From Candidatus Saccharimonadota bacterium (GTDB taxonomy: Bacteria; Patescibacteriota; Saccharimonadia; Saccharimonadales; UBA4665), in the NCBI GenBank assembly GCA_028286245.1, contig JAQBRY010000002.1, forward strand, positions 142,779-206,778: a stretch of 64,000 bases of DNA, given 5' to 3'. Below are positions 5,241-58,365 of this stretch, in pieces (the stretch's first letter is position 1; the number at the start of each line of letters is the position of its first letter). The notes beneath the pieces were generated by a model. The model was given only the letters and a program-made list of their open reading frames with translations, searched no databases and had not been told where the DNA came from. The position numbers and the translations under genes were made by a program.

Positions 5241-6524
5241 TTAGTAAGGGAAGTGATGCTCCGGTCGGCCAACCACAATCTTTTGGCCTGGCTCAACACC
5301 GCGCCGAACAAGTTCGTGCAGGATGCCCATCTTTTTCATAATGTCACGCAGGCGACGAACGCCTTCTTCTTGCTCAAAATCAGTCCGGCGAGCAAACTTC
5401 TCAATTTTTTCGCCGGTGACCACAAAATGGTCACCCTCAACAACAACGTCCCACTTTTTGCTGGTGTCTTCGAGCCGCAGCACTGGAATGGCGTTTAGAT
5501 CCACGGCAGCGGCTTCTTCGACACGTGACCGCACTTCCACAACCTTATCTTTAACAGCAAACAGCATCTCCTTTAGTCCAAGACCCGAAAGAGCCGAGAT
5601 AGCTAGAATAGTGGCATCTTTTGGCGCTGCTCGACGTAGCTGATTAGTGAGGTCCTTTACGATTTCATCATCGAGGCCATCGATCTTACTCAGTACAATT
5701 ACCTCTGGTCGTTCAGCCAGCTCAGGCTGATAGGCGGCCAGCTCGGCTTTAATGGTCAGATACGTTTCGGCCACGTTTTCTTGATAGGCCTCTACCAGGT
5801 GCAAGATAACTGCGGTGCGCTCAATGTGGCGTAAAAAGTCATGGCCCAGACCCTTGCCTTCGGCCGCACCTTCGATGAGCCCCGGAATATCAGCAAATAA
5901 GATACTGCTGGCACCATCAACGTCAACCATGCCAAGGTTTGGGCGCAGCGTGGTAAAGGCATAGTCGGCAATTTCTGGACGGGCATTACTGATTTTACTG
6001 AGCAGGGTCGACTTACCAGCATTAGGCAAACCAACTAGACCCACGTCGGCAATAACTTTTAATTCGAGTGTTAGGTCGGCGATTTCGCCAGCTTCGCCCT
6101 TTTCGGCAAACTTAGGTGTCTGGCGACGAGATGACTGAAAGTGAGCATTTCCAAAGCCACCCTTACCGCCCCTGGCGATCACGGCTTCTTGGCCGTCCTG
6201 CACTAGGTCGGCAATAACTTTGCCGGCCTCGTTTGTAGCCACTGTCCCCACGGGGACAGCTACTAGTAAGTTCTTGGCTCGCTTACCATGCATTTTGGTT
6301 TTGCCACCGGGCTTACCGGGCTGTGCCTTGAGCTCTTTTTGATAACGAAAGGCTGCAAGGGTATTTTGATTACGGCTGGCCACCAAGATTACGTAGCCGC
6401 CATCACCGCCATCACCGCCATCTGGGCCACCCTTATCAATAAACTTTTCGTGTCGAAAGCTCATCTTGCCGTTGCCACCGTCACCGGCAATCGCCGTTAC
6501 CTTAACCTTATCAATAAAACTCAT
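5241..6524 (-). CDS. obg: GTPase Obg
   Basis: Glycine-rich Obg fold (GDGGNGKMSFRHEKF...GGDGGDGG). G-domain motifs GLPNAGKST and DIPGLIEGA are present. C-terminal OCT-like domain (FVVTGEKIEKF...). Confidence 0.95.
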   Translation of the reverse strand: MSFIDKVKVTAIAGDGGNGKMSFRHEKFIDKGGPDGGDGGDGGYVILVASRNQNTLAAFRYQKELKAQPGKPGGKTKMHGKRAKNLLVAVPVGTVATNEAGKVIADLVQDGQEAVIARGGKGGFGNAHFQSSRRQTPKFAEKGEAGEIADLTLELKVIADVGLVGLPNAGKSTLLSKISNARPEIADYAFTTLRPNLGMVDVDGASSILFADIPGLIEGAAEGKGLGHDFLRHIERTAVILHLVEAYQENVAETYLTIKAELAAYQPELAERPEVIVLSKIDGLDDEIVKDLTNQLRRAAPKDATILAISALSGLGLKEMLFAVKDKVVEVRSRVEEAAAVDLNAIPVLRLEDTSKKWDVVVEGDHFVVTGEKIEKFARRTDFEQEEGVRRLRDIMKKMGILHELVRRGVEPGQKIVVGRPEHHFPY

Positions 6525-17071: not shown

Positions 17072-18061
17072 TTAGCGGCGGCGGCTGGCTTGGCGGATAA
17101 TCCGCTGGTTGTAGCGGCGGATTAAGCGTGGGAGGCCGAATATCAGGAAGACAATCAGGGCAGCCAAAACTATAAACAGGGCTATTAAGGCAGTTGGAAT
17201 AACATAAAAGGTAGTACTGGCACTCAACAACTGACCGTTTGAACCATAGCCAAAGTTACCTTCTAATTTGTAGATACCAAATGAGCCAACCTTGTTAAGA
17301 GGGATGGTAAACTTGCGAATACTGTCCGGCAAAACGTTGCCCCGGGGAGTAGTGTTATTGATTTCGTACTGATCAAGGATTTTACCCGAACGGTTCTTAA
17401 GTAAGATTTTGCCGAAAGGCTGCTCCTGGATGTTTCCCTCGTTACGGAAACGAACAACGGCATCAATACCCTTATTGCTTGTAAACAAGCTCTTGGCGTC
17501 GTCTTTGCGGCGGGTGTCAAAACTTGCAAGATTGAGCTGGCTTTTAACATCACCGGATACTCGAACCAAGATCAAAGAACCGACACTGCCTGCCAGGTAC
17601 ACATTCTTACCGGCCGGATCGGCGTCGGCTGGCGCAAAGAGCACAGAGCCGTAGTAACCACCACCGGCAGCGTTAGCCGGGATTTTGATGGTAACCGGTA
17701 TAGAGCGCTGTTCGCCGGGCTGTAAAGAAAATTTAGGAATAGCCTGTACGTACTGGCGAAGACTGTGCTTAAGAGAAGCCGAAGCCCCGTCACGCACAAT
17801 GGCCGGCTGGCCACTTTCGTCACTGCTGGCTGCAAAGTCGTTAACAACCGCTTGCAGGTCAGATTTAGCAGTCGTGACGTTTGTAACGGTGATGTTAACC
17901 ACCTCGGACTTGCCAGGATCAATAGTAAGTTCAGTTCGGACCGGAGAAACGCGAAGGCCATTGCCACCTGCTGCCTTGGCAGTGCCGGTTACGCCACTAC
18001 CCAGTACGACGGCTAGTGTCAGCAAGAGTGCCGTTGGCCGCCATATTTTATTAAACTGCAT
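17072..18061 (-). CDS. DUF916/DUF3324-like (CscA / WxL-interacting-protein-like) surface protein with C-terminal TM anchor
   Basis: Signal peptide and two Ig-like beta modules: LRVSPVRTELTIDPGKSEVVNITVTNVT...IPANAAGGGYYGSVLF, then VVRFRNEGNIQEQPFGKILLKNRSGK. Terminal TM helix plus an RRYNQRIIRQASRRR tail. AAGGGGA RBS. Confidence 0.6.
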   Translation of the reverse strand: MQFNKIWRPTALLLTLAVVLGSGVTGTAKAAGGNGLRVSPVRTELTIDPGKSEVVNITVTNVTTAKSDLQAVVNDFAASSDESGQPAIVRDGASASLKHSLRQYVQAIPKFSLQPGEQRSIPVTIKIPANAAGGGYYGSVLFAPADADPAGKNVYLAGSVGSLILVRVSGDVKSQLNLASFDTRRKDDAKSLFTSNKGIDAVVRFRNEGNIQEQPFGKILLKNRSGKILDQYEINNTTPRGNVLPDSIRKFTIPLNKVGSFGIYKLEGNFGYGSNGQLLSASTTFYVIPTALIALFIVLAALIVFLIFGLPRLIRRYNQRIIRQASRRR

Positions 18062-18166: not shown

Positions 18167-19228
18167 TTAAAAGTTAGCTAGGCAGGTATAGGTAACGGTG
18201 CTCACATACACGCCCGGCGCCTGAGTTTTTGGAATATTTACGATGTAACTAGCCGTATAGCGGCGAATATCATCCGGTTTATTAACGCTCACCAGCGTAT
18301 CTCCCGGCGTAAACTTATAAAAATTTGGTTGGCCGTAATTTGTTACCGGCGATGCCAGGCCGGGGCCGCCCGGATCAGTACCGCCAGCCGGCGAGCTATT
18401 AGCCCGCAGATTTAAGCCAAACTGTGAATTCCCGCTCCGCGATACATCCGCCGTATCGAGCGGGCTAATAACGTTGTTACCACTGGTAAGGGTTGTCCCG
18501 CTCACAAAAATATTGTAGCCGTCGCGCGCGTTGGTAGCAGTCAATAGCTGAGAGGTTCCTTGATTAGCATGGGTGGACGACAGCTCGCCAAAATCAACAT
18601 AGTTACCATTGGCACTAGAACAATTTAAAGAGGCAATAGTGGCACCCACACAAAAAATAATATAGGGCGGTACTTCTGCGCTAATAGCCAGGTTGGCATT
18701 AATGGCAATAACAATAGCACCGTAATCGTTGGCTACTCCCGTGCCGTCGGCAGAAGCATAGGTTTGTAAACGCACAAAATACGATCCGGTGATAGAGGGG
18801 TTGTGAATAGCATCAAAGGTGTAGCTCACCGGTCCGGCAGTTGCTGTCGCCGGCGTACGTCCGATAACAATTTTATTGGCTGTAGAACCGCTAGTAACCG
18901 TAAACCCCGTTTGCCCCGATTGGGCAGACAGACTGGCAGCGCTAGCATCCAAGCCGGTAGGAGCGGTGCACGGGTCGGTCACAAACGGACTGTTTGTACA
19001 GTATTCAACTGCAACAGAACCGAGTACGCCAATTGATGTCAGGCGAAATGATAATTTTTGACTACCCACGCCGTCAACAATACTAGTGCTCAGTGTCATC
19101 GAGCGCTGACCTAATTGGGCACCATTAACAGGGGCTGAAAGCACCCTTACCGCCAGTAGTAATACTACGAGGGCGGTAAGGACTACAACAGGCTTATGCA
19201 GCAATGTTTTGGTGAGGGGTTGGCTCAT
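18167..19228 (-). CDS. secreted beta-rich WxL-like surface protein, 353 aa
   Basis: Signal peptide. Paralogous to the 19240-20478 product (shared C-x-N-x4-D-x-C-T-x-P-T, TY(A/S), FCVG). WxL-domain-like VDFGEL...NARDGYNIFVSG...QFGLNL. Ends in YVSTVTYTCLANF. Confidence 0.6.
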   Translation of the reverse strand: MSQPLTKTLLHKPVVVLTALVVLLLAVRVLSAPVNGAQLGQRSMTLSTSIVDGVGSQKLSFRLTSIGVLGSVAVEYCTNSPFVTDPCTAPTGLDASAASLSAQSGQTGFTVTSGSTANKIVIGRTPATATAGPVSYTFDAIHNPSITGSYFVRLQTYASADGTGVANDYGAIVIAINANLAISAEVPPYIIFCVGATIASLNCSSANGNYVDFGELSSTHANQGTSQLLTATNARDGYNIFVSGTTLTSGNNVISPLDTADVSRSGNSQFGLNLRANSSPAGGTDPGGPGLASPVTNYGQPNFYKFTPGDTLVSVNKPDDIRRYTASYIVNIPKTQAPGVYVSTVTYTCLANF

Positions 19229-19239
19229 TCATTCGTAGC

Positions 19240-20478
19240 CTAGAATTTGCCAGTAGCAATCAAGTCGATGTTGGCCGTGTAAATACCGGCTGGGGTCGTC
19301 AGTGAGGCGACAGCTGCAAAGGTGTAGGTGCTGTCCATACGGTAGAGCGGAGCGGTTGAAGAAGCCACTGGGTCTCCAAAGGTACCGATCACGCTGCCGG
19401 TATCACCAGTAGTTTCGGTATCCATCCCGTAAGTGTTAGCTCCTGTAGATTTGTAGTTTGCGTCTGCAGTCAGAGTTCCTGTGCCATTGGTGTCTGGTGT
19501 ACCGTCGCCAGTCGACATGCCAAATGCGGCCGTACCAATAACCATGGTACCTATTACATAGCCTCCGGTACCGATTGCCGGGATGTCACAGCTAGTACCA
19601 CCGTTGGCACTGAGGCCACCACAAGTAGTGTTACTGTTACGCATCGCAATGGTGGCGCCAGCCGTAGCGTTGGTAGAAATTTGGGAATATACGCTGCCGG
19701 TATCAATCGCCGTAGAGTCCAAGGTAGGGGTCGGGGTGCCATGACCGAGCGTCAAGGCGGGAGCATCTGCAGCCTGTGTAGAATCACAACCGTGCGTTGT
19801 CCATGAGCTGTGGATGGTGCCAGAGACACAGAACGTTAGTTGTTCCTGAACACGAGCCGTAATGGTAATGATTTGGTTAGTACTGAGGGCAATACCGCCA
19901 TAATCTTTGTAGTTACCAGGAGCGGTTGGCAGCGTATAGGCTGTAGTGCTAGAACCAAAAGTTGCATCTGAATAGGTATAAATACGAGCGTAGAAGGTAC
20001 CGAGGGTGCTGGTATTAGTTATGCCGGTCAGGTTAAATGACTGAACGCCTGCCGCCGCCGTAGAGCCTGAGCCCTTAGCGAGTTCGATGTGGCCGGCAGA
20101 TGCCGAAGTAGCTGCCCAACCCGGGCTGGTAATATCACCCGACACACCGGCTAAGCCTACGCCGGAAGTAACCATGGCAGTTGGGACGGTACAGGTATCA
20201 CCAATAATTGGGTTCTGGGAACAGAAGTCTATTATAAGGCTGTCGGCGGCCGTGGTAGTTGTAAACTTCACTTGGTAAGTAACGCCGGTACCACTACCGA
20301 CGCCGGTAGTAATAGTACCGCCACTTACGCCGGAGTCACTCAGCGTAATGCCGCGAAGGAGCAGCTGAGCAGCAGAGGCTGTCTTAGGCCGAAAGACCGG
20401 ATAGGCCACTCCTACCAAAAGTGCAACTGCGGCCATCGTGTAGCCGACCCGTTGCAATACACGAAACTTAGTTATCAT
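19240..20478 (-). CDS. secreted beta-rich WxL-like surface protein, 412 aa
   Basis: AAGGAG RBS and a signal peptide. Paralogous to the 18167-19228 product. Ends in YTANIDLIATGKF. Confidence 0.6.
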   Translation of the reverse strand: MITKFRVLQRVGYTMAAVALLVGVAYPVFRPKTASAAQLLLRGITLSDSGVSGGTITTGVGSGTGVTYQVKFTTTTAADSLIIDFCSQNPIIGDTCTVPTAMVTSGVGLAGVSGDITSPGWAATSASAGHIELAKGSGSTAAAGVQSFNLTGITNTSTLGTFYARIYTYSDATFGSSTTAYTLPTAPGNYKDYGGIALSTNQIITITARVQEQLTFCVSGTIHSSWTTHGCDSTQAADAPALTLGHGTPTPTLDSTAIDTGSVYSQISTNATAGATIAMRNSNTTCGGLSANGGTSCDIPAIGTGGYVIGTMVIGTAAFGMSTGDGTPDTNGTGTLTADANYKSTGANTYGMDTETTGDTGSVIGTFGDPVASSTAPLYRMDSTYTFAAVASLTTPAGIYTANIDLIATGKF

Positions 20479-20592
20479 TGAATTTCTCCTTGAGTATTTT
20501 TGTTTATTGTTTTTGGTTTTAGATATTTCTGAGGCTATCGTAACACGCTTATGTTAGGGCTGCAAGCAAAACATTAAAAAGTTATCCACAAG

Positions 20593-21330
20593 TTAATAGG
20601 TCGCGGTAGCAACGAGATCGTGTTCCAGCGAGTAGGTTCCGCCCGGCGTTACGTTACTAATATTAAATAAGTAGGAGATCGTGTAGTTAGTGTAGCTGCT
20701 GCTGGCAGTGGACAAGGCTATGGTGTCATCTTTTACGTACTTATATATGTTAGGACTACTGTAATCCACTGCCACCTGGCCAAAACCAAAGGACGTATCA
20801 GGGCCCTGCGTAGGATCGGCACCAAAGGTAGTTGGCAGGGTATTGGCCACTAGGTTAATACCGAACTGCTCGGTTCCCACCTGTGAGGCAGATGGAATGG
20901 TAATTGCCGCCATATGATAGGTGTTGTTCTTAGGAGTATCAGATGTAGAAGTAACCGTATAGCCATTTGACAGGTACGATTTAACGCTAAAGGTGGCCGT
21001 TGTCGTTTTGGTGGTAGTTGGTGTCATGGTTCCCAGGTCTACGTTTGTAGTACCAACGGTAAATTCGATGTAGGGTTCCCTATTTGTATTAAAGCCACCC
21101 TGGGCCTGAAAATTAGTGCTCGCCGTATTGCCTACCGCTGTTTCACCGGCCGACTGCTTAGAGCAGTAGCTTCCTGAACAGGCATTGAGCTCGCCGCCGC
21201 TACCAAAAAAGACCTCGTTCACTTGATACGAATTGGAGGATGACTGAGCAGCAAAAGTTATTGCTGGGGTGAGTACTACCACGAGCAATCCAAAAAAGGC
21301 TAGTTTTACTGTTTGTTTCCAGACACGCAT
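20593..21330 (-). CDS. secreted beta-rich WxL-like surface protein, about 245 aa
   Basis: Signal peptide MRVWKQTVKLAFFGLLVVVLTPAITFA from the ATG at 21330. Contains NGYTVTSTS...EQFGINLVANT. Ends in YSLEHDLVATATY. Confidence 0.6.
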   Translation of the reverse strand: MRVWKQTVKLAFFGLLVVVLTPAITFAAQSSSNSYQVNEVFFGSGGELNACSGSYCSKQSAGETAVGNTASTNFQAQGGFNTNREPYIEFTVGTTNVDLGTMTPTTTKTTTATFSVKSYLSNGYTVTSTSDTPKNNTYHMAAITIPSASQVGTEQFGINLVANTLPTTFGADPTQGPDTSFGFGQVAVDYSSPNIYKYVKDDTIALSTASSSYTNYTISYLFNISNVTPGGTYSLEHDLVATATY

Positions 21331-22457: not shown

Positions 22458-23993
22458 ATGACAACGCCTATAGCTACCAACACAAATGAAAAAATCGGCC
22501 AGTTAATCGCCCGTATCCGTCAGGATAGGGGCCTAACCCAAGCCGAGTTTGCCGACCGGCTTAAAACCTCCCAGTCAGCCGTAAACCGGATTGAACACGG
22601 CCGGCAAAACCTAAGTTTAGAGATGTTAGGACGCATTAGTGACGTCTTAAATAAGCAGCTGATCAGCGTGAGTGGTGGTGCAGTAAACCTAAGAATTGAA
22701 GGCGGCCACGAGCTGCACGGCGAAATTGACCTCAAAACCAGTAAGAATGCTGCCGTTTCACTATTATGCGCCAGCCTTCTCAACTATGGTGTTACCCGCT
22801 TTAAATCATTTCCACGTATCGAGGAGGTAAACCGCATTATTGAAGTGCTCGAAAGCATCGGCGTCCAGGTAAAATGGCTGCCCGGCAATGATCTGGAAAT
22901 CCGCCGTCCAGAAGTTTTACAACTCGACAAACTGGACGCCAAAGCGGCCCGTAAAACTCGTTCGGTCCTGATGTTGATTGGCCCGCTTATGCACGACCAC
23001 CAACTATTCAAAATTCCGTTTGCCGGTGGTTGTAAGCTCGGCACACGCACAGTGGCTCCCCACTTTTATGCGCTCGAAGAACTCGGCGTTAGCATTGTAG
23101 CTACCAAAGGCAATTACGAAGTAGCGGTTAATAAAAAATCAGCCGACAGAATTACCCTGTACGAACCGGGTGACACCGTTACCGAAAACGTTCTCATGGC
23201 TGCCGCCCGCACCACCGACCAGGTGTTTATAGAGTTTGCCAGTGCCAACTACATGGTGCAAGAAATGTGCTTTTTCCTGCAAAAACTCGGCGTCGAGATC
23301 AGCGGCATCGGTACCAGCAAGTTAACCGTAAAAGGCGTACCATTTATAAAAAAGAACATTACCTACGCCCCGAGCGAAGACCCCATTGAGGCCATGTTCT
23401 TTGTGTCGGCCGCGGTCACCACGAACTCTGAAATCACTATTAATCGTGTGCCAATCGAGTTTATGTCTATGGAGCTTCTTAAGCTCAAAAAAATGGGGCT
23501 TAGCTACGACGTAACACCTCGTTACAAAGCCCTCAACGGCCAAACCGATCTGGTAGACCTAACCGTTCATAAACACGACGGCAAACTACGTGCTGTGGCC
23601 GATAAAATCCACTCCCTGCCCTTCCCTGGCCTCAACGCCGACAACCTGCCCTACTTTGTGCCAATTGCCAGCGTCACCCGCGGCCGCACGCTTATCCACG
23701 ACTGGATGTATGAAAACCGGGCCATCTACTACACCGAAATGACTAAGATTGGTGCCCAAATTGAACTGGCCGACCCGCACCGTGTATTCATTACCGGCGC
23801 TACTAAATTTACTCCCGCCGATGTGGTTTGTCCGCCAGCCCTCCGGCCAGCTTCACTACTGCTCATAGGCATGCTCGCCGCCAACGGCATCAGCATCCTG
23901 CGTAACATCTACACTATTCAGCGCGGCTACGAAGACCTGGCCGAACGACTCAACAGCCTCGGCGCCGACATTACCGTCCTCCACGAGATCTAG
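22458..23993 (+). CDS. murA: XRE-type HTH domain fused to UDP-N-acetylglucosamine 1-carboxyvinyltransferase
   Basis: N-terminal IARIRQDRGLTQAEFADRLKTSQSAVNRIEHG (HTH_3-like). The rest is collinear with MurA/EPSP-synthase fold proteins (KTSKNAAVSLLCASLL, active-site-loop Cys in FAGGCKLGTRTV). TATAAT (22444-22449) ends 8 nt before the ATG. Confidence 0.85.
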   Translation: MTTPIATNTNEKIGQLIARIRQDRGLTQAEFADRLKTSQSAVNRIEHGRQNLSLEMLGRISDVLNKQLISVSGGAVNLRIEGGHELHGEIDLKTSKNAAVSLLCASLLNYGVTRFKSFPRIEEVNRIIEVLESIGVQVKWLPGNDLEIRRPEVLQLDKLDAKAARKTRSVLMLIGPLMHDHQLFKIPFAGGCKLGTRTVAPHFYALEELGVSIVATKGNYEVAVNKKSADRITLYEPGDTVTENVLMAAARTTDQVFIEFASANYMVQEMCFFLQKLGVEISGIGTSKLTVKGVPFIKKNITYAPSEDPIEAMFFVSAAVTTNSEITINRVPIEFMSMELLKLKKMGLSYDVTPRYKALNGQTDLVDLTVHKHDGKLRAVADKIHSLPFPGLNADNLPYFVPIASVTRGRTLIHDWMYENRAIYYTEMTKIGAQIELADPHRVFITGATKFTPADVVCPPALRPASLLLIGMLAANGISILRNIYTIQRGYEDLAERLNSLGADITVLHEI

Positions 23994-48649: not shown

Positions 48650-49681
48650 CTAGAAGGAGGCAGCGCCAACAACGGTAATAGTGTCCGTGTAGTCGGTGGC
48701 AGCTGGTGTTGCACCGGCGACAGCGGCGTTGGTAGTAAGCGACAAGACGTGGCCGGTAGCTGTTCCGTTAGCCGAAGCCATAGAGGCAAATGAGGTGTTA
48801 AGCCCACCGCCCTTGCCGGCTGAGCCGCCAACGAATGGTGCCGTAACGGTGATAACCCCAGTTCCACCACCGTTTGCCGATGTGACACCGGTGTTGTAGC
48901 CTTCGGTACCGGCTGAAAGCGTGCTGTTTGTGCCCGGAGTGGTAGAAGCGATTGTCTTGGTAGCGCTGGCGGAGAGCAAGCCAGTATTGACATCACGGGC
49001 CCAGAGGTTCCAGCCGCTGGCAGCGTTGGTGTTTATGGTTACCGTACGTGGTGTTGGGCTTGATGAGACTGCACCGCTGGCAAGTGCGCCAAGGTTATCT
49101 GTGTTGCCGCTAAGTGCAAAGCTGAATGCCTGCGGCACTGATGCGGTGACTACAATCTGGTCATCGGCAATACTAGCCGTGCTAAAAGGAGAAGAATCTA
49201 GCAGAGTTGGACCGGCTATATATGTTTCAACGGTACCGGTATTGTTGGCAGTAGCACTTGCTTTAACAGTTACAGCCACTGGGTTCACCCAGTTAAAGCA
49301 GTAGAGTACTCCTACGGTAAGGTCACCACTTGGAAAGGTTACAACCTGACCGGTAACATTAGTAGCGGTAGCAATACCGGGCCAGGCGGTACCACCGGTA
49401 GGCCAGGCGGTGTTAGTAGTGCCGACGGTAAAGGTCGAAGCGATTCCAAGCGTATAACCGGTTGGGAAAGTAACTAGAGTAGTTGCTTCCGTACCCGCGC
49501 TAGAAGGCTTAGCACAAACGGTGCCAGTGGTGGTGGTACTGATCTTCATACGATCAAAACGAACAGAAACTTGAGACAAAGAGGCAGCATTTGCTACGCT
49601 CGCGAGCACAACAGGAGCAATTATAGCGATGCCAAACACGGCCACCAGTGACCTTGCAATTAGTTTGCGATTGATTGGCAT
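48650..49681 (-). CDS. secreted beta-rich WxL-like surface protein, 343 aa
   Basis: CAGGAG RBS and a signal peptide. FSFALSGNTDNLGAL...TVTINTNAASGWNLWARD retains a literal W-x-L. Ends in YTDTITVVGAASF. Confidence 0.6.
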   Translation of the reverse strand: MPINRKLIARSLVAVFGIAIIAPVVLASVANAASLSQVSVRFDRMKISTTTTGTVCAKPSSAGTEATTLVTFPTGYTLGIASTFTVGTTNTAWPTGGTAWPGIATATNVTGQVVTFPSGDLTVGVLYCFNWVNPVAVTVKASATANNTGTVETYIAGPTLLDSSPFSTASIADDQIVVTASVPQAFSFALSGNTDNLGALASGAVSSSPTPRTVTINTNAASGWNLWARDVNTGLLSASATKTIASTTPGTNSTLSAGTEGYNTGVTSANGGGTGVITVTAPFVGGSAGKGGGLNTSFASMASANGTATGHVLSLTTNAAVAGATPAATDYTDTITVVGAASF

Positions 49682-49763: not shown

Positions 49764-50819
49764 TCAAAATGACATGGCAGTGATAATAGTCACCTTATCG
49801 GAATAGTCAGTAGAGGCGGGTGTGATAGAAGTTGTCTTAGCCATAAAGGTAATTTGACCGCTGCCCGTAGTAACAGGGCCGGTCGTTCCAAATAATTGCT
49901 GCAGGCTGGTGCTCAGCGCTCCAACGTTATTAGCGGAGCCGTTATAAGGGCTGCTAGCGGTCAGAGGACCGCCGCTAGCCTGCGAAAGGCTGGTTATCTG
50001 ACCCCCGTAGCCGCTGGCGGCGGCAGTAAGGTCAGCAGTAGCAGAGCTTATAGTACTATTTTTGGCGGTACTAAATAATCCGTTACTGGTGTCTTTTATA
50101 TAGACCCCTCCGCCAAAAACGGCATTAGTACTAACGCTCACCAGCGCTCCAGCATTTGCCGAGAAGACGCTGTTTGGCGCTAAACTAGTAAAACCCACTG
50201 TAAAGGGCGGCGTTGCATTAGCGGTAGTTGCAACGGCAAAACTAACCGACGGTGCTGCCGTTGCTACCCCTGTTGAAACTGGACCAAAAGCCGAACCCGT
50301 AAAACCGCCCTGCAGGGCACTTACTTTTACGGTGTAGGTGGTGCTCGGCAAAAGACCCAGCACATCAATACCGGTAGAACTCCCCCACAAAGCATAGGTC
50401 TGATAATCCTCTATCCCGAGTACTGCCCCGACGCTATTGTCATTTTGAATATACTTAGTGGTCGCAAATCCGTCGGAACTAATAGCGATTGCAAATTTTG
50501 TATCGGTTGGATTACTACCATTATTAATAACTAGGTGCAGCTTATTATAGGTGTTAGCCGGGTTACTTAAGGTGGCTGCCGGCGGCACGTTCGCGGTCTG
50601 GCTCGACTGCTCACCAGGTTTCAAAATTGTTATACCGTTGGTTGCCGAGGCACCCGTCTGCGAACCGGACGTCCCGTTTAAGGCGTACGAGCTGCTTGAG
50701 CTGCTGCCACCGCCAGTACCAAAATCGTAATTCCTGAGCGTAAAGTTGGTACTTGCCGGTGATGCTGCAAATAGACTGATAAGCCCTGTGGCACTAAAAG
50801 CCATGAAGGTTTTAAACAT
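49764..50819 (-). CDS. secreted beta-rich WxL-like surface protein, about 351 aa
   Basis: Signal peptide from the ATG at 50819 (MFKTFMAFSATGLISLFAASPAST). Ends in YSDKVTIITAMSF. Confidence 0.6.
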   Translation of the reverse strand: MFKTFMAFSATGLISLFAASPASTNFTLRNYDFGTGGGSSSSSSYALNGTSGSQTGASATNGITILKPGEQSSQTANVPPAATLSNPANTYNKLHLVINNGSNPTDTKFAIAISSDGFATTKYIQNDNSVGAVLGIEDYQTYALWGSSTGIDVLGLLPSTTYTVKVSALQGGFTGSAFGPVSTGVATAAPSVSFAVATTANATPPFTVGFTSLAPNSVFSANAGALVSVSTNAVFGGGVYIKDTSNGLFSTAKNSTISSATADLTAAASGYGGQITSLSQASGGPLTASSPYNGSANNVGALSTSLQQLFGTTGPVTTGSGQITFMAKTTSITPASTDYSDKVTIITAMSF

Positions 50820-57339: not shown

Positions 57340-58365
57340 TCAAATTTGGACAGAGAAGACCATGGTTCGCATAGTGTATTCTCCGGCATTTTTGTCGTAC
57401 GGGCCGCCACAGGTAATCAAATTAAGACCGGGCACGCCCGGCTGTACTGATCGCAAACCAAGGCCCAGATCGAGTGTTTTGGCGTCATAATCTTGCACTT
57501 TGACTACTTTGTATTGGAAGACAGTGTCATCACCGCGGGTAATTTTTATGATGTCACCGGCTTTGAGTTTCTTAATTGCCACAAAAACACCGGGCAGAGT
57601 AGGTCCGTGAACGTGGCCGTCTATAAGTATGGCTCCATTCCCGGCCGAATCACCCGGCTTGGCGCTGGCGTTATACCAACCGGCGTCGTAAATACTGTAG
57701 GGTGCCTGCAATTCACCGTTTGCGGTAATTCCCATTGGCTTAATCCGGGCGTTATTAACACCTATCGAATTAATAGTAATTAGTTTTGGTGAACCTGGTG
57801 CAACTTGGTAGGGCGCACCATTGGCTGGCGGCTTTGCTTCTGAAGGTGGTTGCCCGGGACTTAGGGCCGTTACCTCACCGGTACTGTCTGCCTTTTTTGA
57901 GCTTAGAGCGGCCACTTGTGCCTTGGTACTACTATTCGTTTGCAAGGTAATTAAGCTAACTATGAGACCAACAAAAAAGATAAAGCCTGCCATACCTACC
58001 AAAGCTATTTGCGGCCGGGAATACCGCGACCAGCGGCTCTGGTGCTTCTGCTCTAATATCGGTGCCGTAACGGCTTGGCGCTGCAGAACGTGTGAGGTCT
58101 GCTGCTTGTGTTGGGCTGGCCGGGCATAGGCCTGGGGCTCAACAATTGCCAACGGCGCGCTTGGTACCGCTACTAAAGGAGGCGGAGCCACTGGCTTTGG
58201 CGCCATGTGCTTTTGTGGTGGTGAAACAAAACTCGGATCCCGCACAATCTGGGCACGACTGCGGTTCACAATAGGAGCACGTACGGAGCGCGCCGCCAAA
58301 TTTGGCTGGCGCAATCTCCCGTAAAATGCTGGATTATCGAGACCGATTCGTGCGCGGTCGGGCAT
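57340..58365 (-). CDS. membrane-anchored sortase
   Basis: Pro-rich N-terminal region and one TM helix. The catalytic domain has ILIDGHVHG (His), LNLITCGG (TLxTC-type Cys) and a downstream Arg (YTMRTMVF). Confidence 0.8.
   Translation of the reverse strand: MPDRARIGLDNPAFYGRLRQPNLAARSVRAPIVNRSRAQIVRDPSFVSPPQKHMAPKPVAPPPLVAVPSAPLAIVEPQAYARPAQHKQQTSHVLQRQAVTAPILEQKHQSRWSRYSRPQIALVGMAGFIFFVGLIVSLITLQTNSSTKAQVAALSSKKADSTGEVTALSPGQPPSEAKPPANGAPYQVAPGSPKLITINSIGVNNARIKPMGITANGELQAPYSIYDAGWYNASAKPGDSAGNGAILIDGHVHGPTLPGVFVAIKKLKAGDIIKITRGDDTVFQYKVVKVQDYDAKTLDLGLGLRSVQPGVPGLNLITCGGPYDKNAGEYTMRTMVFSVQI

Follow-up and report, generated by a model that had tools for sequence, protein, structure and literature searches.

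Five secreted proteins with a common C-terminal strand as probable Pam pilus subunits in a Candidatus Saccharibacteria genome

What is the role of a C-terminal strand of the same geometry that closes five secreted beta-rich proteins of a single bacterium? The question arises in a stretch of 64,000 nucleotides (hereafter the window) from contig JAQBRY010000002.1 of a Candidatus Saccharibacteria metagenome-assembled genome (locus tags JWM81_400, 401 and 430), where two gene clusters encode proteins that end in Y-x11-[FY]-COOH. The analysis indicates that all five are very probably subunits of the Pam pilus, and that their tail is most likely a strand of the groove which a chaperone strand, and then the linker of another subunit, would fill. 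The system itself is already known from a 2026 preprint (bioRxiv 10.64898/2026.03.03.709456) and from the curated NCBIfam models NF058578, NF058579 and NF058581, which derive from it.

In agreement with the original prediction, translation places this ending in five of five open reading frames (ORFs), all on the minus strand (Table 1), with Tyr at position -13 counted from the end and Phe or Tyr as the last residue. All five tails have hydrophobic or aromatic residues at -13, -9, -7 and -1; those at -5 and -3 are small except in the pilin of 359 amino acids (aa), which has Thr and Met there. Among the 131 six-frame ORFs of at least 80 aa across the window, Y(-13) combined with a terminal aromatic residue is found only in these five and in a spurious 80-aa ORF (5792-6034). 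Direct reading of the sequences also identifies an N-terminal signal-peptide-like segment in each of the five. The proteins are paralogues: PamT (256 aa) and the 353-aa protein have a C-terminal domain in common (blastp 3.7e-11), the N-terminal domains of the 353-aa and 412-aa proteins are related (4.9e-14), as are the C-terminal domains of the 343-aa and 359-aa proteins (1.7e-10), and the family profiles of the 343-aa and 353-aa proteins are colinear from end to end (hhalign E 2.9e-4, 40.6% probability; E 2e-4 and 46% for the C-terminal domains alone). The agreement of the tails therefore reflects common descent under constraint and not five independent events.

Conservation across orthologues had been set as a test beforehand, and the tail proved near-invariant in the two families sampled at 120 members each. 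Asp(-14), Tyr(-13), Asp(-11) and Phe(-1) are each present in 120 of 120 orthologues of the 343-aa pilin; for the 353-aa pilin the same holds for Gln(-18), Gly(-15) and Tyr(-13), while Phe(-1) is found in 119 and Tyr in the remaining one. A mixed profile of the C-terminal domains, searched against 1.84 billion 50%-identity representatives, retrieved 2280 of them at E<=1e-3 and 872 at E<=1e-10. Y(-13) and the terminal aromatic residue are present in 144 of the best 150 relatives (the exceptions are four fragments and two proteins ending in Leu), and the full-length proteins among these 150 terminate exactly at the last residue of the tail, without extension. The motif is likewise retained by orthologous pilins at four other Saccharibacteria loci and by the PamT orthologues of two loci, L069 and L071. 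Such a strict protein end is not needed for folding, which makes it unlikely that the tail is a mere core strand of a closed beta-sandwich whose conservation reflects folding alone; in that reading the G-x-Y...aromatic pattern would be a widespread closing strand of Ig-like surface domains in bacteria, without a specific part in assembly. WxL proteins, which possess similar tails, tolerate 0 to ~15 extra residues (an example of a small WxL protein tail is ...VPAGNIGGSYSSTLTWTLANAPA). The tail and the linker are, moreover, among the three most conserved segments of the 353-aa family, and in the preprint, too, conservation is highest at the C-domain's binding site. What speaks for a core strand are the small core-type residues at -5 and -3, the generic nature of the Foldseek matches of the 353-aa model and, besides the WxL tails, those of 187-aa secreted proteins encoded near PamB-type clusters at two further loci (L073, 18553-19116, and L074, 16899-17462, both on the minus strand). 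These end in AGSYNVSITYTAVAINE or AGTYQVDVAYTAVAENQ, with a similar last strand, Tyr at -14 and no terminal aromatic residue; no counterpart of them was seen in the window.

Position -5 of the 353-aa pilin is occupied by an odd fifth cysteine, Cys349 (18182-18184, minus strand). An intermolecular disulphide through this residue was considered and rejected because the position alternates across the family, about half of the relatives having Cys and about half Ala or Gly. By sequence reading, Cys is also missing from the chaperone and from the N-terminal strand of PamR. Cys349 thus probably marks a position for a buried small residue rather than for an intermolecular disulphide.

Cluster 1 is a pam operon. 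PamT and PamR are recognized by their NCBIfam models at the equivalog level, and the model of the Pam pilin C-domain (NF058581, cutoff 55 bits) scores above its cutoff in two of the five proteins (142.5 bits for PamT, and the 353-aa pilin as given in Table 1) and below it in one (34.8 bits for the 412-aa pilin), with no match in the other two. The genes are ordered PamT, PamA-like, PamE-like, chaperone, PamR and MnmA, as they are at L069 and L071, and the 353-aa pilin occupies the position of PamE in this conserved operon. The 412-aa pilin is syntenic with proteins of 455-474 aa in other Saccharibacteria, whose tails are ...PAGIYTANLDLIATGTF and ...PPGIYTASYTLVATGTF. In Ca. Mycosynbacter amalyticus the corresponding filaments were solved by cryo-electron microscopy (cryo-EM) at 2.8 and 3.6 Å, which identified PamA and PamB, the 2nd and 9th most abundant proteins, as subunits with a beta-sandwich N-domain, a single linker strand and an incomplete immunoglobulin (Ig)-like C-domain that accepts the linker of a neighbour; the linker and the binding site of the C-domain are the most conserved regions of these pilins (bioRxiv 10.64898/2026.03.03.709456). 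From AlphaFold and Foldseek the same work proposed PapD/FimC-like anchored chaperones (PamC and PamD), a domain-only tip pilin (PamT), an adaptor (PamE) and an RbmA-like anchor (PamR), and the GenBank numbering in its supplement implies a single contiguous operon, PamC-B-R-D-E-A-T (bioRxiv 10.64898/2026.03.03.709456). The present locus resembles that of M. amalyticus in its Saccharimonadia host, in its PamT and PamR equivalogs, in its restriction to the candidate phyla radiation (CPR), and in the make-up of its products (signal peptide, beta-sandwich, linker and incomplete Ig-like C-domain in the pilins; two domains and a transmembrane anchor in the chaperones). It differs in that its genes are split into two clusters ~27 kb apart instead of one contiguous operon, and cluster 2 contains two chaperone paralogues and a second tip-like pilin, with pilins that the NCBIfam pilin model misses. 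The PamA-like protein is also shorter (412 aa versus 55 kDa), and the ATP synthase genes, which lie just upstream of the operon at L069 and L071 and neighbour it in the preprint too, are not adjacent to it in the window.

The AlphaFold2 monomer model of the 353-aa pilin (mean predicted local distance difference test, pLDDT, 92.8; predicted template modelling score, pTM, 0.56) consists of two beta domains, with which the other two-domain pilins are colinear: an N-terminal beta domain, a linker and a C-terminal domain. The linker (residues 178-189, ANLAISAEVPPY) is modelled as coil with a lower pLDDT (~79). In order, the most conserved 9-residue windows of this family are QFGLNLRAN (269-277), VPPYIIFCV (186-194) and GVYVSTVTY (339-347), of which the second is the end of the linker, adjoining ANLAISAEV, and the third is the start of the tail; this matches the pattern of conservation described in the preprint. 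PamT has no hydrophobic amphipathic linker strand and keeps the following strand and the tail. A weaker observation concerns the N-domain of the 353-aa family (residues ~55-165), in which Pfam DUF2808 is matched in 35 of 120 members, at best with 25.4 bits against a gathering threshold of 25.3.

These data bear directly on which strand is donated. Because it is amphipathic and terminal, the tail is formally compatible with a donor strand that completes the fold of the next subunit, yet this is highly improbable: the linker is the donor in the cryo-EM structures of homologues, the monomer model, in which the linker is unstructured, places the tail with confidence in a strand of its own subunit, and PamT, which is expected not to donate, has the tail but no linker. 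The likeness to the G/F strand of chaperone-usher pilins that had originally been suggested therefore stands for the F strand, on the acceptor side, and fails for the G strand, since the donor in the solved homologues is the linker between the domains.

The reading of the tail as a strand of the acceptor groove leads to the following model. Each subunit would be exported by Sec, and its tail, as the last strand of the C-terminal domain, would lie beside the strand with the TNAxxG[YW]x[IVL] motif, the two most likely forming the hydrophobic floor and edge of a groove that is open in the monomer. Before assembly the groove would be filled by the G1-like strand of an anchored two-domain chaperone, for which there are three candidates in the window (Table 1); upon assembly the linker strand of the next pilin would replace it. 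PamT, which comprises the C-terminal domain only, would cap the tip, and PamR would anchor the base in the membrane. The tail would correspond to the F strand that ends chaperone-usher pilins and whose free carboxylate the chaperone grips, which would explain why the proteins stop at this residue. Filament formation and linker donation have been shown for homologues, and by analogy would also take place in this organism; the donor role of the linker of the 412-aa pilin, NQIITITARV, is similarly extrapolated from the preprint. The original proposal of a strand-complementation filament with an anchored chaperone in a monoderm agrees with this model, given the donor-strand exchange seen by cryo-EM, the predicted chaperones and the PamT and PamR equivalogs found here.

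The anchored proteins, which had been described as DUF916-like and as membrane-tethered Ig-fold proteins present in each cluster, bear out both descriptions. The 329-aa protein of cluster 1 exceeds the gathering threshold of Pfam PF06030 (DUF916/WxLIP_PGBD), and 121 of 122 relatives match this Pfam family; 18 of the 122 also match PapD_N weakly (best E 0.0089). Its AlphaFold2 model (pLDDT 85.8, pTM 0.72) contains two beta domains and a transmembrane helix (residues 290-328), with a disordered loop at 145-160 (pLDDT <50 at 150-159) followed by a strand at 161-168, and the two proteins of cluster 2 are its paralogues. Foldseek ranks 9i1y and 9i25 first (E ~6e-12), the structures of EfmWxLIP1 by itself and in complex with a long WxL protein, followed by Caf1M, CfaA, CsuC, YadV, FimC and DraB (E 3e-8 to 6e-7). 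Alignment of the family with 55 Firmicutes WxL-interacting proteins (WxLIPs) extends over 227 columns and both domains (hhalign 98.3%, E 2e-14). The Pam chaperones are thus firm homologues of the Firmicutes WxLIPs, a link that, like the C-terminal motif, is not mentioned in the preprint (bioRxiv 10.64898/2026.03.03.709456). The two most conserved windows of the chaperone family are GNGLRVSPV in the A1-like strand and, second, LAGSVGSLI in the G1-like strand. In WxLIPs, a hairpin is predicted by AlphaFold2 to become ordered, to pair in parallel with a long WxL strand and to fill a gap in the WxL sandwich (PMC10599100). The disordered loop and G1-like strand of the Pam chaperone correspond to this hairpin.

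Chaperone-usher pili (Pap, Fim, Caf1, CFA/I and Csu) likewise combine an incomplete Ig-like pilin and a donated strand with a two-domain chaperone having conserved A1- and G1-like strands, and their pilins too are closed by a conserved C-terminal strand. The C-terminal region of these pilins has a conserved Gly and a penultimate Tyr; Arg8 and Lys112 of PapD hold the carboxylate. In the PamD-type chaperones, Arg37 and Arg42 are each conserved in 118 of 122 relatives and Lys or Arg167 in 104, which makes anchoring of the carboxylate by conserved Arg plausible in this type; the protein end at the tail would then expose its free carboxylate near these basic residues. This detail is tentative and cannot be general, as the conserved Arg residues of the A1-like strand are missing from both chaperones of cluster 2. 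Other differences from chaperone-usher pili are that the Pam chaperone is tethered by a transmembrane helix whereas the PapD family is soluble and periplasmic, and that the candidate donor is an internal linker of two-domain pilins instead of an N-terminal extension. The pilins show no significant sequence similarity to chaperone-usher pilins, there is no usher-like gene in either cluster, and the host group has no outer membrane. The preprint describes the group in the same way (bioRxiv 10.64898/2026.03.03.709456).

Several points besides the missing Arg residues weigh against assignment of all five proteins to a Pam pilus. The function of the chaperones is a prediction and not an experimental result in the preprint (bioRxiv 10.64898/2026.03.03.709456), and none of the three chaperones here has an NCBIfam Pam match. 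Neither do the 343-aa and 359-aa pilins: cluster 2 is tied to Pam only by the hhalign comparison of the two pilin families (E ~2e-4, 40-46% probability), by shared motifs and by homologous chaperones. Foldseek with the full 353-aa model returned only generic two-Ig-domain adhesins (template modelling scores 0.15-0.26), including the chaperone-usher adhesins CfaE, PapG and FimH with low scores; the WxL chain of 9I25 was absent from the best 50 matches, and PDB sequence searches with the pilins and both family profiles, in a copy that lacked the PamA and PamB structures, yielded nothing relevant. Finally, that the tail pairs with the donor strand, where exactly it lies in the groove and that its carboxylate is anchored are inferred and not seen.

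Homology of the chaperones with WxLIPs raises the possibility that the locus encodes a non-polymerising surface complex of the WxL type, with WxL-like wall-associated proteins that the DUF916 protein only keeps at the surface, a function proposed for the WxLIPs of Firmicutes. The resemblance to the Firmicutes Csc and Elr clusters (PMC10599100, PMC9772566; PDB 9I1Y, 9I25) is considerable: the anchored protein is a true homologue with the WxLIP architecture (DUF916 or PGBD, then another Ig-like domain and, at the C-terminus, a transmembrane helix), it belongs to Pfam WxLIP_PGBD with WxLIP alone and in complex with a long WxL protein as its best structural matches, and both kinds of cluster combine one domain-only protein and larger proteins sharing its C-terminal domain with anchored DUF916 proteins. 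Nonetheless, Pfam WxL has no match at E<=1 in the five proteins nor at E<=10 in 120 relatives, Pam pilins do not outscore reversed decoys with a WxL hidden Markov model (HMM), and the Trp is mostly replaced by Tyr, Val, Leu or Ile. Nor does any residue follow the last strand in the five proteins, and in place of a small LPXTG protein the Pam anchor is PamR with a transmembrane helix. WxL proteins have so far been regarded as peptidoglycan-bound and not as filament-forming, while the equivalog-level matches here are Pam proteins, whose homologues form long filaments and include two of the most abundant proteins of their cell. A non-polymerising complex is hence decidedly unlikely, even though the pilin tail itself aligns with the second WxL motif.

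This alignment was evaluated with 69 small WxL proteins from 68 Firmicutes loci, whose loci were located in genome contigs through a degenerate version of NQIDKxxxYFDLK; a tblastn search of plasmids with the chaperone, aimed at WxL loci, gave no matches. Full-length hhalign comparisons of the pilin families with WxL were non-significant (probability 0.7-13%), as were comparisons restricted to the C-terminal domains or made with the mixed alignment (0.1-1.9%). With a more diverse profile of the Pam C-domain, the best local match paired TNAxxGYxI with DxRGxxGWxL at a score of 25.5, as compared with 11.0±2.1 (maximum 19.4) for 150 column shuffles and 11.7 once the profile was reversed. Alignment of the final 45 Pam columns to the final 50 WxL columns gave E 3.6e-5 (71% probability, score 22.6), which none of 100 shuffles reached (7.7±1.8, maximum 13.9; reversed profile 8.6), with Y(-13) placed on the Tyr of YxxxLTWxL and position -7 on its Trp. 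The two motifs are 109-115 residues apart in the pilins versus ~106 in small WxL proteins. By profile-profile comparison, then, the claim that the tail takes the place of the second W-x-L motif holds, in a relationship to which the HMM-versus-sequence search is blind. The alignment is suggestive of homology rather than proof of it. In WxL models the motif strands are adjacent and antiparallel and form a buried platform under a loosely attached N-terminal strand (PMC9772566), which the WxLIP hairpin can cover instead (PMC10599100), and the alignment accordingly supports assigning the Pam tail to the floor or the edge of an acceptor groove.

Whether the incomplete Ig-like C-domain of the Pam pilins is homologous to the Firmicutes WxL domain, as their partner proteins are, is a matter for tentative suggestion, the contrary being more probable. 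If it were, the WxL/Csc/Elr clusters of enterococci, listeriae, lactobacilli and bacilli would be chaperone-subunit donor-strand systems and not simple peptidoglycan binders; short WxL fibrils would be possible, tipped by a small WxL protein, built of large WxL proteins and anchored by the LPXTG protein; and the last strand Y-x3-[LIV]-T-aromatic would be a common docking strand for chaperone and donor in one pathway found throughout monoderms. The view of a large class of Gram-positive surface-protein clusters, some of them tied to virulence, would change accordingly. PamR residues 12-63 weakly match NCBIfam EF0750_LPXTG (E 0.042), although the overlap is mostly signal peptide. This family comprises the small sortase-anchored proteins EF2685 and EF0750, which presumably lie in enterococcal WxL clusters, and the match hints that the anchor subunits of the Pam and WxL systems might correspond.

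The terminal Phe and a sortase-like protein elsewhere in the window might point to another route to the surface. The only sortase-like gene (LITCGG motif) lies ~7 kb from cluster 2, next to a gene for a substrate-like 545-aa protein with a glycine-rich, repeat-like region, LPKTPDTG, a hydrophobic segment and a basic tail (Table 1). Beta-signals of outer-membrane proteins also end in Phe. It is nevertheless extremely improbable that the five proteins are sortase-assembled pilins of the Gram-positive type or carry a C-terminal Phe sorting signal in the style of outer-membrane proteins: all five lack an LPXTG-type signal, transmembrane segment and basic tail, sortase and barrel-assembly genes are absent from both clusters, and the model of the 353-aa protein is soluble and Ig-like. 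The two genes resemble a sortase and its substrate and seem to have no relation to the Pam clusters.

Donor-strand filaments on cells without an outer membrane are also formed by TasA, the archaeal bundling pilin AbpA (PMC9245690) and cannulae, but in these the donor strand is terminal and a dedicated chaperone is absent, and no sequence or operon similarity to them was found here. Pam pili, which are thought to let ultrasmall parasitic CPR bacteria reach and hold host cells, are the first reported donor-strand-exchange pili with membrane-tethered chaperones and no usher. To this the present locus adds the split arrangement in two clusters with a second tip-like pilin, the Y-x11-aromatic-COOH signature, which also catches pilins missed by the curated model, and the firm link between Pam chaperones and Firmicutes DUF916/WxLIP proteins.

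Table 1. Coordinates in the window of the pilins, chaperones, strands and neighbouring genes
Feature	Coordinates	Strand	Details
PamR, RbmA-like membrane-anchored terminator/anchor, 304 aa	16122-17036	minus	NF058578 equivalog, 405.9 bits (cutoff 300)
PamD-like anchored chaperone, 329 aa, WxLIP/DUF916	17072-18061	minus	PF06030, 30.6 bits (gathering threshold 27.3)
G1-like strand of 329-aa chaperone	17558-17602	minus	VYLAGSVGSLILVRV; follows disordered loop
PamE-like two-domain pilin, 353 aa	18167-19228	minus	ends ...YVSTVTYTCLANF; NF058581, 154.9 bits (cutoff 55)
C-terminal strand of 353-aa pilin	18170-18208	minus	YVSTVTYTCLANF-COOH; residues 345-351 modelled as strand, pLDDT ~96
Putative donor (linker) strand of 353-aa pilin	18671-18697	minus	ANLAISAEV, residues 178-186; coil in monomer model
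PamA-like two-domain pilin, 412 aa	19240-20478	minus	ends ...YTANIDLIATGKF; N-domain related to that of 353-aa pilin
C-terminal strand of 412-aa pilin	19243-19281	minus	YTANIDLIATGKF-COOH, from translation
Putative donor (linker) strand of 412-aa pilin	19849-19878	minus	NQIITITARV; aligned with linker of other pilins
PamT, single-domain tip pilin, 256 aa	20593-21363	minus	ends ...YSLEHDLVATATY; NF058579 equivalog, 296.6 bits (cutoff 240)
C-terminal strand of PamT	20596-20634	minus	YSLEHDLVATATY-COOH, from translation
Divergent pamT neighbour, 328 aa	21432-22418	plus	homologues in same position at L069 (6676-7674) and L071 (6473-7561)
511-aa protein	22458-23993	plus	
Tail-fibre-like secreted protein, 754 aa	44052-46316	minus	downstream of cluster 2; Bdello_MAT_N E 3.3e-7, below cutoff
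Anchored chaperone paralogue, 383 aa	46408-47559	minus	blastp 1.4e-8 over 326 aa against 329-aa chaperone
Anchored chaperone, 359 aa	47534-48613	minus	blastp 1e-9 against 329-aa chaperone; weak WxLIP_PGBD match
Major-type pilin, probably PamB-like, 343 aa	48650-49681	minus	ends YTDTITVVGAASF; 1737 homologues
C-terminal strand of 343-aa pilin	48653-48691	minus	
Linker of 343-aa pilin	49136-49162	minus	DQIVVTASV, residues 174-182; from translation
Second-cluster pilin, 359 aa	49764-50843	minus	ends YSDKVTIITAMSF; C-domain related to that of 343-aa pilin
C-terminal strand of 359-aa pilin	49767-49805	minus	
Sortase-like protein	57340-58365	minus	LITCGG
Sortase-substrate-like protein, 545 aa	58394-60031	minus	LPKTPDTG

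Cluster 2 encodes two pilins that diverge more, together with another two anchored chaperones. Both chaperones have a C-terminal transmembrane segment and a basic tail, which is long in the 383-aa paralogue. Presumably the same two chaperones follow the orthologue of the 343-aa pilin in two other genomes, where the proteins encoded next are of comparable length and also have basic C-termini. The 359-aa pilin has an fn3-like middle region, only a weak linker and an uncertain GTG start codon. After the signal peptide, its N-terminus resembles that of PamT (S-x-N-[YF]-x-[VL]-x-N-x-x-F-G-[ST]-G-G), weakly, with 7 of 500 shuffles scoring as high. This pilin is possibly another tip subunit, in which case the two clusters would build separate pili. 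The 754-aa tail-fibre-like protein encoded downstream of cluster 2 belongs to a type described as a conserved neighbour of Pam genes (bioRxiv 10.64898/2026.03.03.709456).

On the other side of pamT, the divergently transcribed gene encodes a 328-aa protein whose N-terminus is acidic and which also contains a transmembrane segment, a beta region rich in repeats and, at the C-terminus, a conserved F-x-F-D-Y motif. Between this protein and the C-terminal half of the 754-aa protein there is weak similarity (Smith-Waterman score 94, versus 52.7±8.8 for shuffles). The 511-aa protein encoded beyond it appears by eye to be an unusual fusion of an N-terminal XRE-type helix-turn-helix with an enolpyruvyl transferase domain like that of MurA or EPSP synthase.

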